Below, in pieces: positions 32,160 through 33,949 of a stretch of 64,000 nucleotides of DNA. The stretch lies in IMG/VR virus record IMGVR_UViG_2851938318_000001; one strand, 5' to 3'. A program made the translations under genes and the position numbers. The DNA is from a virus (lineage: Duplodnaviria > Heunggongvirae > Uroviricota > Caudoviricetes). Below the pieces are notes generated by a model. That model made no database searches. It was given only the letters and a program-made list of their open reading frames with translations, and was not told the origin of the DNA. The stretch's first letter is position 1, and each line of letters begins with the position of its first letter.

Positions 32160-32573
32160 TTAATGAGCTACAGCCTCACTGTTGCACATCTTTCTGTAGA
32201 CCTGCTTATAACGCTGTAAATCATGAGGATCATTAGGTGCCAACGACTTCGATAGGATTTTGTATACCACCCCTTTTGAAAACATGCCCTTTGGCTTCAT
32301 TTCGAGTTCAACAACATATGAGTGATAGCCCACGTATGCACCAAAGCCATTTTTGGCGTTTAATTCACCACACACAAAGCCTGTCACACTCCCATCATCA
32401 TGATCAGTCCTGACAAACTTATCTTTCCTAAACATCACCGACGTGGGATCTTTCATATCATCCGCAATTGCCTGTTGGCCCAGAGTAATAGCCTTCTCGT
32501 CTGTAGGCTTACACCCAACTAATGCAAACAAAGACAATAAAGCACCTGTTAAAATCAACTTCTTTTTGCTCAT
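32160..32573 (-). CDS. Lipoprotein (137 aa)
   Basis: Signal peptide with lipobox LVGC. Confidence 0.55.
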   Translation of the reverse strand: MSKKKLILTGALLSLFALVGCKPTDEKAITLGQQAIADDMKDPTSVMFRKDKFVRTDHDDGSVTGFVCGELNAKNGFGAYVGYHSYVVELEMKPKGMFSKGVVYKILSKSLAPNDPHDLQRYKQVYRKMCNSEAVAH

Positions 32574-32803
32574 TTTGACTTCCCTTTATTTATATTTATC
32601 GTAGGTATTAGTTAACCAAAACACGAGCCGTGTCACAATAATTCCATAGCTCATTATCTCTATCGGTGATTAATATCACATCAACTTTACAGTCCATAAA
32701 TTAAATTATCAAAGCTGACAGATTAACTAAATTTAAGTACCCTTTTCGCACGCTTGACGCTTGCCGCGTCTAAACTATTCATCCCATATCAACAGAAAAA
32801 AAC

Positions 32804-33949
32804 ATGAAATACATAAAACCTTCATCGTTGCTGGCATTAACTTTGCTTTTTAGCTCTGGATTCGTTAACGCAGACAATAAACAAACGCTGATAGAAGCCG
32901 CTAACGCAGGTGATACCGCAGCACAAAGTGAGTTAGGGACAAATTATTTGGATGGTGTCAATGGTTTTGATAAGGATGTAGTTGAGGCCAAGAAGTGGAT
33001 TGATCTCGCTGCAGAAAAGGGAGATAAAGTAGCATATTATGCACTTGGAGTTATGTACACATTTGGCGAGGGTGTAGATAAAGACCTAAATAAAGCTGTT
33101 GAGTACTACAAACTTGCGGGGGATGCTCGTGAAGGTAGAGCCTACAACAATCTTGGTGCTATTTATCAAAAGGGGATGCTTGGTAAAGTAGATCATGCAC
33201 TCGCCATTAAATACTTCAAACTAGCCTCTGATGCCGGGTATGTTAAAGCAACTTCAGTTCTTGGGGCGTATTACCAATATGGTAAAGGCGTTCAAAAGAA
33301 TTATAAAAAGGCTTTTACTTATTACAAAAAGGCGGCAGACCAAGGCAGTTCAGAAGCTATGATAGGATTAGGAATACTATACGATGATGGGTTAGGCGTT
33401 AAACGCAATGATGCAGAAGCAGTTAAGTGGTATAAAAAGGCAGCGGAACTTGGAAACGCCGACGCCATAACCAATCTTGGCATTATGTATGAGAATGGGG
33501 AAGGAGTAAAAAAGGACTATAAAAAAGCAGCCGACCTTTATCAGACTGCTTGCAATAAAGGAGAAAAAAGAGGCTGTGAATACATTACTGAACTGAAAGA
33601 AAGCGGAAAATATCGAGTATCTGATTCCAAAGCCAAATCAAAATCAGATGTACAGCGACTTATTGCTAAATCCATTGATAAAGGCGTTAACGCAACTTTT
33701 ACCTGGCAAGGTGATGACGCCACATTCACCGCTAATGGCGGCAAAATTGACTGCACTTTCCTAAAGGATTTTTCAGAGAAAGGAGGCAATCTGGCTACCT
33801 CGTTTGTTTGCACCGATAACGTTCAAATCATCCTGAAGCAATTCAGAGATACCAAGAATGCCTACCTCGCGGTAATGACTGACAACTTCAACACAGAAGT
33901 TAAATCATTTTCGGTCAATGTTTACGTGACTAATACTGGTTCAAACTAA
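32804..33949 (+). CDS. Secreted Sel1-like repeat protein
   Basis: Signal peptide then about seven tandem 36-aa Sel1-type repeats (A..Y/W..A.G...A...LG..Y..G.GV..D). Confidence 0.65.
   Translation: MKYIKPSSLLALTLLFSSGFVNADNKQTLIEAANAGDTAAQSELGTNYLDGVNGFDKDVVEAKKWIDLAAEKGDKVAYYALGVMYTFGEGVDKDLNKAVEYYKLAGDAREGRAYNNLGAIYQKGMLGKVDHALAIKYFKLASDAGYVKATSVLGAYYQYGKGVQKNYKKAFTYYKKAADQGSSEAMIGLGILYDDGLGVKRNDAEAVKWYKKAAELGNADAITNLGIMYENGEGVKKDYKKAADLYQTACNKGEKRGCEYITELKESGKYRVSDSKAKSKSDVQRLIAKSIDKGVNATFTWQGDDATFTANGGKIDCTFLKDFSEKGGNLATSFVCTDNVQIILKQFRDTKNAYLAVMTDNFNTEVKSFSVNVYVTNTGSN

Follow-up and report, generated by a model that had tools for sequence, protein, structure and literature searches.

Positions 32,160 to 33,949 of a 64,000-nucleotide stretch of caudoviral DNA (IMG/VR record IMGVR_UViG_2851938318_000001; the whole stretch is called the window) contain a gene for a small lipoprotein (32160..32573, minus strand, 137 amino acids, aa) and a gene for an exported Sel1-repeat protein (32804..33949, plus strand, 381 aa). 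The window is 100% identical to plasmid pRM9131-1 from Escherichia coli RM9131 (cattle faeces; 117 kb, IncFIB-typed, non-mobilisable). Its flanks are 94-97% identical to the Escherichia phages PhiR41_1, Cyrano and CMS-2020a and about 80% identical to Salmonella phage SSU5. Because of these matches, the element that bears both genes, pRM9131-1, is assigned to the SSU5-like phage-plasmids. The two genes occupy a variable slot in its replication block and are independent morons (accessory genes of temperate phages), not one two-gene system.

The lipoprotein gene and the Sel1 gene

Both genes are embedded in genes that are encoded on the minus strand. On the left side are a gene for a hypothetical protein of 260 aa (31252-32034, phrog_4248), a gene for a 156-aa protein and a gene for an ATP-dependent ligase. 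On the right side is the primase gene (33941-35056 in RefSeq), followed by that of a DnaB-like helicase. The Sel1 gene is the sole plus-strand gene within this ligase-primase-helicase stretch. It is convergent to the primase gene, and the 3' ends of the two genes share 9 nt (33941-33949). The same overlap is found in Enterobacter plasmid pOSUEC_F and in plasmid pJH51-3. A preliminary description of the window had reported a lipoprotein and a secreted Sel1-repeat protein with a signal peptide, sited between a hypothetical gene and the primase. We find the two open reading frames (ORFs) exactly at these coordinates and on these strands, and both identities and the siting agree with our analysis. 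The term "secreted" is borne out as far as the export signal is concerned, but it can be read only as export to the periplasm. The description had overlooked that the Sel1 protein ends in a distinct domain of ~100 residues, which is better conserved than the remainder.

The N-terminus of the lipoprotein is MSKKKLILTGALLSLFALVGC followed by KPT. It has a KKK n-region, a hydrophobic core and a lipobox (L-V-G-C, residues 18-21) that conforms to the pattern [LVI][ASTVI][GAS]C of bacterial lipoproteins. Residues L18, G20 and C21 are invariant among homologs. As Cys21 is followed by a lysine (position +2), the protein would be sorted to the outer membrane according to the Lol rule of E. coli. The mature domain has 116 aa. 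It contains a cysteine pair (Cys68/Cys130) that probably forms a disulfide, and further residues are invariant or nearly so (D42, P43, S45, F48, V67, C68, G69, N72, K74, N75, G78, Y80, G82 and C130, the pair included). An AlphaFold model (predicted local distance difference test, pLDDT, 85) consists of a helix, a four-stranded antiparallel sheet and another helix. The predicted fold is cystatin/NTF2-like and resembles the cystatin/VirB8-like folds. A Foldseek search of the model against PDB returned nothing significant (best E=0.02), and phmmer found no match among PDB sequences.

By PHROG scan, the lipoprotein is assigned to phrog_2320, a family without assigned function. It is part of a superfamily of small, mostly lipoprotein-like proteins, which comprises 4,780 representative clusters at E<=0.001. 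When the lipoprotein and 45 diverse family members were compared with Pfam and NCBIfam, no family covered the core domain. Five of these 45 proteins have a C-terminal SPOR domain and one has an SH3_3 domain. Annotations of phage homologs likewise name SPOR or peptidoglycan-binding domains. These fusions and annotations suggest that the lipoprotein domain works in the periplasm near the wall.

The two genes are separated by a divergent, AT-rich intergenic region (32574..32803, GC ~0.37). A sigma-70-like promoter is predicted for the Sel1 gene (32715..32743, plus strand), with CTGACA as -35 element (32715-32720), a 17-nt spacer and TACCCT as -10 element (32738-32743), about 60 nt 5' of the ATG. 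In an alignment of four loci (with both genes or with the Sel1 gene only; ~60% mean identity), invariant columns fall on CTGACA and TA(C/A)CCT, while the spacer varies. It is plausible from this pattern that the Sel1 gene carries its own promoter, which travels with the gene. A promoter-like site of the lipoprotein gene (32712..32684, minus strand; TTGATA-17-TAAAGT) is weak and poorly conserved. A terminator-like, GC-rich hairpin (32127..32153, minus strand) starts 7 nt past the stop codon of the lipoprotein gene. It has a 9-bp stem, a 9-nt loop and a weak T tract, and its RNA fold has an energy of -21.3 kcal/mol (z = -3.1). Two plasmids with only the lipoprotein gene have a hairpin of unlike sequence in the same place (L022, z = -4.0; L023, z = -2.2, followed by the T-rich CUUCUUUU), so that a hairpin is kept after this gene in three of four loci (z = -2.2 to -4.0). 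Rfam gave no match for 31000-35000.

The Sel1 protein starts with a Sec-type signal peptide (32804..32872, plus strand; residues 1-23) that was read from the sequence, with predicted cleavage between VNA and D. Its N-terminus is MKYIKPSSLLALTLLFSSGFVNA followed by DNKQ, and all full-length homologs have comparable N-termini. In the homolog on Pantoea sp. plasmid pAPP145_4 (L027, 6083-7339), the signal peptide contains LLGC, which resembles a lipobox. Some members of the family may thus be membrane-anchored lipoproteins rather than soluble periplasmic proteins. The upstream gene in Pantoea was checked as a potential lipoprotein homolog and is not one.

The signal peptide is followed by the Sel1-repeat array (32873..33589, plus strand; residues 24-262), which is the allele-variable part of the protein. 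It consists of six repeats, reflected in a 108-nt direct-repeat periodicity of the DNA. The protein belongs to Pfam family PF08238 (Sel1; E=1.1e-52, 175 bits at a cut-off of 30.7, six stretches). A conserved cysteine pair (Cys250/Cys258) is found in the last helices of the array. Among proteins of known structure, c5321/EsiB (4bwr, E=6.8e-64) and Hcp (1ouv, 2.3e-37) are strong sequence matches; Legionella LpnE (6deh) also matches, as do the structures of Sel1-type T6SS (type VI secretion system) immunity proteins 5jkp (E=1e-12) and 5jjo (1e-10). In NCBIfam, the best matches of the array are the periplasmic proteins MerG, MotX, AlgK and ExoR, all of them weak and far below the family cut-offs.

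The C-terminal domain (33650..33928, plus strand; residues 283-375) is the part of the protein that is most conserved among homologs. It is predicted to be an eight-stranded up-and-down beta-barrel (pLDDT 78) and has a conserved cysteine pair of its own (Cys317/Cys336). No Pfam family covers it. When the domain was searched alone, the protein database returned three fragments only, the INPHARED phages gave no match, and no fusion to other N-termini was found. Full-length homologs are confined to Enterobacterales (Escherichia, Enterobacter, Citrobacter, Leclercia, Pantoea and Pseudenterobacter). The fold search with the barrel model returned DUF4251 (score 9.0), DUF1842 (8.2), Cap15 (7.8), the immunity protein BtaiB of a type VI secretion system (T6SS; 7.7), PliC (7.6 and 7.3), MliC (6.8), PhiA (6.2), avidins (6.0-6.6) and the small outer-membrane barrels NspA, OmpA, PagL and OmpW (6.7-7.7). 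The barrel is unlikely to be an outer-membrane anchor, as it has eight strands of 6-14 residues in ~95 aa, a conserved disulfide and no C-terminal aromatic residue.

The variable slot

Pairwise alignment with PhiR41_1 places the breakpoints at ~32095 and ~33957. In PhiR41_1, Cyrano and CMS-2020a, the 1.86-kb segment between them is replaced by ~75 bp, and the primase gene is adjacent to the homolog of the gene for the 260-aa protein. The left edge is just past a palindrome with perfect arms (TAAGTA-N6-TACTTA, 32077..32094), which is located 5' of the latter gene. This palindrome is kept in every state of the slot, the relatives in Citrobacter and Cronobacter included, and may serve the backbone operon as an operator or promoter element. 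The right junction (33941..33957) begins with the overlap between the Sel1 and primase genes, and homology to the empty site is back from ~33957. As is typical for a moron, the flanks are adjacent in the empty state and the junctions are sharp. The base composition also deviates, with a GC content of 0.37-0.41 over 32000-33999 compared to 0.45-0.50 on both sides.

Among 5,426 complete E. coli genomes, 252 have the backbone (primase-helicase), and 61 have the two-gene cassette (~24% of the backbone carriers), all cassette copies being plasmid-borne. In PLSDB, the backbone is found in 398 records and the cassette in ~60. As the segment is lacking in the closest phages and in most of the E. coli backbone carriers, it is accessory; presence or absence in relatives is the check that the preliminary description had itself suggested, and its outcome is clear. 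We are confident that the segment ~32095-33957 represents accessory cargo and that its site, directly downstream of the primase gene, is a hotspot prone to recombination. Neither target-site duplications nor terminal inverted repeats were found at the junctions, where a repeat search returned only the 108-nt periodicity of the Sel1 gene and short repeats at chance level. Transposition is therefore rejected as the insertion route.

The slot occurs in at least six states. It is empty in PhiR41_1 and in most E. coli members. In phage SSU5, it is occupied by SSU5_041 (phrog_22938), an unrelated cytoplasmic gene. Only the Sel1 gene is found in plasmids from Enterobacter and Citrobacter freundii (e.g., pOSUEC_F), and a 345-aa allele occurs in this state on E. 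coli-type backbones. Only the lipoprotein gene is found in Citrobacter sp., Cronobacter sakazakii and Enterobacter hormaechei (pHD8642-1), located 32-56 bp behind the primase gene on the same strand; tblastn positions suggest that a Salmonella plasmid is also in this state. Both genes are present in Escherichia, including pRM9131-1 and pJH51-3. Finally, plasmid A of E. coli D9 has a fimbrial chaperone-usher operon together with Phd/Doc in this slot. By tblastn, the C-terminal domain of the Sel1 protein was found in 90 PLSDB records and the lipoprotein in 74, and their genus distributions differ.

Homologs of either gene also occur alone in other types of temperate phages. Those of the lipoprotein are found between ogr and int in P2-like phages (SEN4/SEN5 and a prophage of E. 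hormaechei), between tail genes K and I in lambdoid phage Fraca and Pseudomonas phage AUS531phi, and between the tail chaperone genes and the tape-measure gene of a Klebsiella element. In lambdoid prophages from Leclercia and from metagenomes, homologs of the Sel1-barrel gene come after the tail-fibre genes, truncated copies are near tail-fibre genes in Enterobacter kobei, and one homolog is within an array of orphan toxin and immunity genes for contact-dependent inhibition (CDI) in Pseudenterobacter. The single-gene states of the slot and the occurrence of each gene alone in other temperate phages lead to the conclusion that the lipoprotein and Sel1 genes are two independent morons that share one hotspot. 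From the preliminary description, the assignment as accessory cargo rather than core phage function is retained: 61 of 252 backbone carriers have the cassette, the closest phages lack the segment, it is GC-poor, and the Sel1 gene has a promoter-like site of its own. The term "pair" has to be given up.

Two of the contexts are reported as separate observations. At the end of a metagenomic lambdoid prophage (L012), a gene for a second Sel1-repeat protein of 311 aa without barrel (10047-10982) is located ~0.8 kb downstream of the Sel1-barrel homolog, past the tail-fibre genes, an arrangement that recalls the tandem Sel1 paralogs of T6SS immunity loci. In a 388-kb contig from Escherichia whittamii (L026), the Sel1-barrel gene adjoins a 72-aa fragment of an SSU5-type primase (7589-7804), which suggests the remnant of a phage-plasmid that integrated into, or fused with, a larger replicon.

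Compared with pJH51-3, the rate of synonymous substitutions (dS) of the cassette is 0.27, that of the adjacent primase gene is 0.74, and the neighbouring protein of 260 aa shares just 47% identity; we conclude that the cassette was exchanged between diverged backbones. In the same comparison, the lipoprotein gene has a ratio of nonsynonymous to synonymous rates (dN/dS, omega) of 0.11 and the Sel1 gene one of 0.16. Between E. coli backbones that hardly differ (primase and helicase 98-100% identical), the Sel1 array is 97, 90, 68 or 57% identical to that of the window and has five, six or seven repeats, while the barrel stays 96-98% identical. Within the group of 381-aa alleles, the array has omega values of 0.07-0.27 and the barrel of 0.02-0.08; gene-wide positive selection in the array is thereby ruled out. 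The segment-wise dS of the Sel1 alleles is a mosaic. Intact reading frames of constant length are found in dozens of plasmids that are 3-8% apart in DNA. Comparison of the plasmids thus shows that the phage-plasmid can do without either gene, that purifying selection maintains both, and that they assort independently and pass from one backbone to another by recombination.

Further features of the window are listed for context. A 255-aa ORF with a GIY-YIG domain (37611-38378, plus strand) was assigned by PADLOC to PD-T4-3 (E=1.3e-23) and also matches Pfam LEM-3_GIY-YIG. It is the next opposite-strand cargo gene in the minus-strand replication/partition block. Enterobacter plasmid pOSUEC_F has a DUF2971 gene in the equivalent place, which suggests that this site is a second hotspot. 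Six ORFs have the same length of 296 aa, four on the plus strand (1479-2369, 3039-3929, 7998-8888 and 39957-40847) and two on the minus strand (17665-18555 and 51573-52463). The only one tested (1479-2369) codes for a transposase of the rve family; in RefSeq, the element nearby is labelled IS3-like IS1203. This copy of the phage-plasmid is heavily invaded by one insertion sequence (IS), and its phage functions may be compromised. An AT-rich stretch (GC ~0.29; 26326-27234, plus strand, and 27413-27970, minus strand) is beside four tRNA genes (Ser, Thr, Tyr, Asn) and is possibly further foreign cargo. Its 302-aa ORF matched nothing in Pfam or PADLOC.

Possible functions of the two products

We propose, as a tentative reading, that the two proteins protect the cell that carries the phage-plasmid. 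Both would be made while the element resides as a plasmid. That the products are exported is supported by the signal peptide, the lipobox and the conserved cysteine pairs. The lipoprotein would be exported via the lipoprotein pathway and show its small, disulfide-bonded cystatin/NTF2-like domain in the periplasm. The Sel1 protein would be exported to the same compartment via Sec and would combine the allele-variable Sel1 array, a protein-binding superhelix, with the conserved eight-stranded barrel. Both may be periplasmic binders or inhibitors that guard the envelope of the carrier from outside agents that act in the periplasm. Candidates for such agents are the ejection or muralytic proteins of superinfecting phages and toxins of the T6SS, CDI or colicin type. 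The Sel1 array would set target specificity, with the barrel providing a constant function.

Sequence, predicted models and analogy to characterized systems lead us to this mechanism, which we regard as possible. Both folds are typical of inhibitors and immunity proteins. Sel1 proteins are known as T6SS immunity proteins, and the Llp-like exclusion lipoproteins are a precedent. Homologs are located beside tail-fibre genes and in a CDI array, and the Sel1 array is swappable. Additional support is seen in the likeness of the barrel to BtaiB and the lysozyme inhibitors PliC, MliC and PhiA, in the fusions of distant lipoprotein relatives to the peptidoglycan-binding domains SPOR and SH3_3, and in the PD-T4-3 defence gene that fills the next opposite-strand slot. 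When the status as hotspot cargo and the protective mechanism are taken together, we consider the overall picture to be reasonably probable.

Several points weigh against this picture. The consensus promoter scan did not flag the CTGACA/TACCCT site, and the region had no more sites than shuffled sequence. For the Sel1 gene, whose end meets the convergent primase gene, no terminator was found. The position of the lipoprotein gene close behind the primase gene in the lipoprotein-only plasmids means that it may share a transcript with the replication genes. In pRM9131-1, a cognate toxin gene is not among the neighbours, which are the genes for the primase and the 260-aa hypothetical protein. PADLOC had no match for the lipoprotein and only a spurious, repeat-level PtuA match for the Sel1 protein, without a passing stretch. 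Lastly, purifying selection and the mosaic dS indicate that the diversity of the Sel1 alleles stems from recombinational replacement and not from demonstrable positive selection.

Among the alternatives, the one that survives best, although it is rather unlikely, is that the proteins are directed at the cell itself. They would bind the cell's own peptidoglycan hydrolases, its sensor kinases (as does ExoR) or the tethers between outer membrane and peptidoglycan, and would tune cell-wall turnover, permeability (compare MerG) or lysis timing for the plasmid-carrying cell or the phage. In Legionella, the lytic transglycosylase Slt is inhibited by EnhC, a Sel1 protein of the periplasm; a literature search for EnhC together with lytic transglycosylase gave nothing relevant. 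The fusions of lipoprotein-domain relatives to SPOR or SH3_3 and the annotated peptidoglycan-binding domains are consistent with such a role, as are the best NCBIfam matches of the Sel1 array, but the latter are all far below the cut-offs. A housekeeping target would poorly explain why near-identical plasmids have sharply unlike Sel1 alleles, and it leaves the recurrent siting beside tail-fibre genes unexplained.

We consider it more doubtful still that the genes are cargo for host interaction, as the preliminary description had suggested with lysogenic conversion in mind, or for virulence, with one or both proteins acting at the cell surface or in the medium, e.g., in IgA binding like EsiB/c5321 or in serum resistance like lambda Bor. 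The Sel1 repeats resemble those of EsiB and LpnE, but this likeness is at the level of generic repeats, and EsiB is devoid of the barrel. Carriers were isolated from animal and human gut, urine and blood, but homologs are also found in Pantoea and Leclercia, which are associated with plants and the environment. Fimbriae fill the same slot in another plasmid, and immune pressure could also account for the many alleles of the Sel1 array. However, the homologs are sited in moron slots of prophages and in a CDI array, not in pathogenicity islands, and the proteins have Sec and lipoprotein signals only, with no surface-export device nearby.

A core function linked to replication was considered because of the position in the ligase-primase-helicase block and because the lipoprotein gene is co-oriented with this block and, in some plasmids, is located close behind the primase gene. 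It is highly improbable. The genes are missing from about three quarters of the E. coli members and from the closest deposited phages, unrelated genes fill the slot in other members, and export signals on both products are incompatible with a role in DNA replication. This explanation is effectively refuted by the presence/absence data. That the segment is decaying hitch-hiker DNA without function, as truncated (P0004, P0159, P0275-P0277) and IS-interrupted copies might indicate, has next to no likelihood in view of the intact frames of constant length in the diverged plasmids, dN/dS values of 0.02-0.27 and conservation of the genes across genera.

A bolder version of the protective-binder reading, which we consider improbable, is that the Sel1-barrel protein is a modular, phage-borne periplasmic "orphan immunity" or anti-superinfection factor in which swappable arrays on a constant barrel neutralise unlike incoming proteins that act in the periplasm, and that the lipoprotein founds a large, so far undescribed family of temperate-phage exclusion or inhibitor lipoproteins with a cystatin-like fold. 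If a role in exclusion or immunity is true, two new protein families would be added to the prophage-encoded envelope defences, and the Sel1-barrel protein would illustrate in a simple way how specificity can be swapped while the scaffold stays constant. Clinical and livestock Enterobacteriaceae commonly carry SSU5-like phage-plasmids, and knowing the slot as a cargo hotspot aids the reading of such elements. The cargo found so far consists of envelope proteins, fimbriae, a toxin-antitoxin pair and SSU5_041. Both protein families recur in moron positions of several types of temperate phages.

Comparison with known systems

The moron concept (Hendrix/Juhala) describes an autonomous accessory unit in a temperate phage, examples being lom and bor of lambda and the moron genes of HK97. 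The two genes share with these that an extra gene, here with a putative promoter or a terminator-like hairpin, is placed between backbone genes, is patchy among close relatives and has sharp junctions. Deviant base composition and envelope-targeted products are further common traits. They differ from classic morons in that two independent units share one slot, which is in the replication block of a plasmid-prophage rather than in a late operon. In presence/absence and base composition, the two genes conform to the definition of a moron; promoter and terminator are predicted from the sequence, and the search for a terminator of the Sel1 gene had no result.

EsiB (c5321) and Helicobacter Hcp are, like the Sel1-barrel protein, exported Sel1-repeat proteins, and the similarity at the repeat level is strong. 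However, they are chromosomally encoded and lack the C-terminal barrel, and our analysis gives no support to a host-directed role such as theirs (IgA binding, immune modulation). The barrel resembles the lysozyme inhibitors PliC and MliC, Brucella PhiA and the T6SS immunity protein BtaiB in its predicted fold. Sequence identity to these is, however, only 6-9%, and Pfam has no MliC/PliC match. As avidins and small outer-membrane barrels were returned by the same fold search, the barrel fold is not diagnostic.

The lipoprotein is comparable to Llp of phage T5 and Cor of phages phi80, N15 and HK022. These are also small phage-encoded lipoproteins; the lipoprotein studied here is predicted to reside at the inner leaflet of the outer membrane, and its homologs are often beside tail or receptor-binding genes. 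Llp is located at this leaflet and binds FhuA (bioRxiv 10.64898/2026.03.26.714494). However, no sequence relationship to Llp or Cor was detected (the PHROG scan returned only families of unknown function), and the mature domain is larger and cystatin/NTF2-like.

For Sel1 proteins with a role in immunity, targets have been assigned: Pseudomonas aeruginosa PA5086-PA5088/Tli5b act against PldB, and Klebsiella pneumoniae Sel1E acts against VgrG4. PA5087/88 and Sel1E are proven T6SS immunity proteins, with an established role as inhibitors that bind proteins (PMC7216683, PMC7108748). The Sel1-barrel protein has the Sel1 fold in common with them, and likewise forms families of diverged paralogs or alleles, with one homolog in a CDI array and another that is followed by a second Sel1 gene. 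It differs in that no effector gene is adjacent, and a barrel has not been described for the T6SS immunity proteins; the similarity is at the repeat level and is not orthology. A literature search for SSU5 together with Sel1 returned nothing relevant. Both protein families are uncharacterised, and what we describe is accessory moron cargo of a known sort in a phage-plasmid hotspot.

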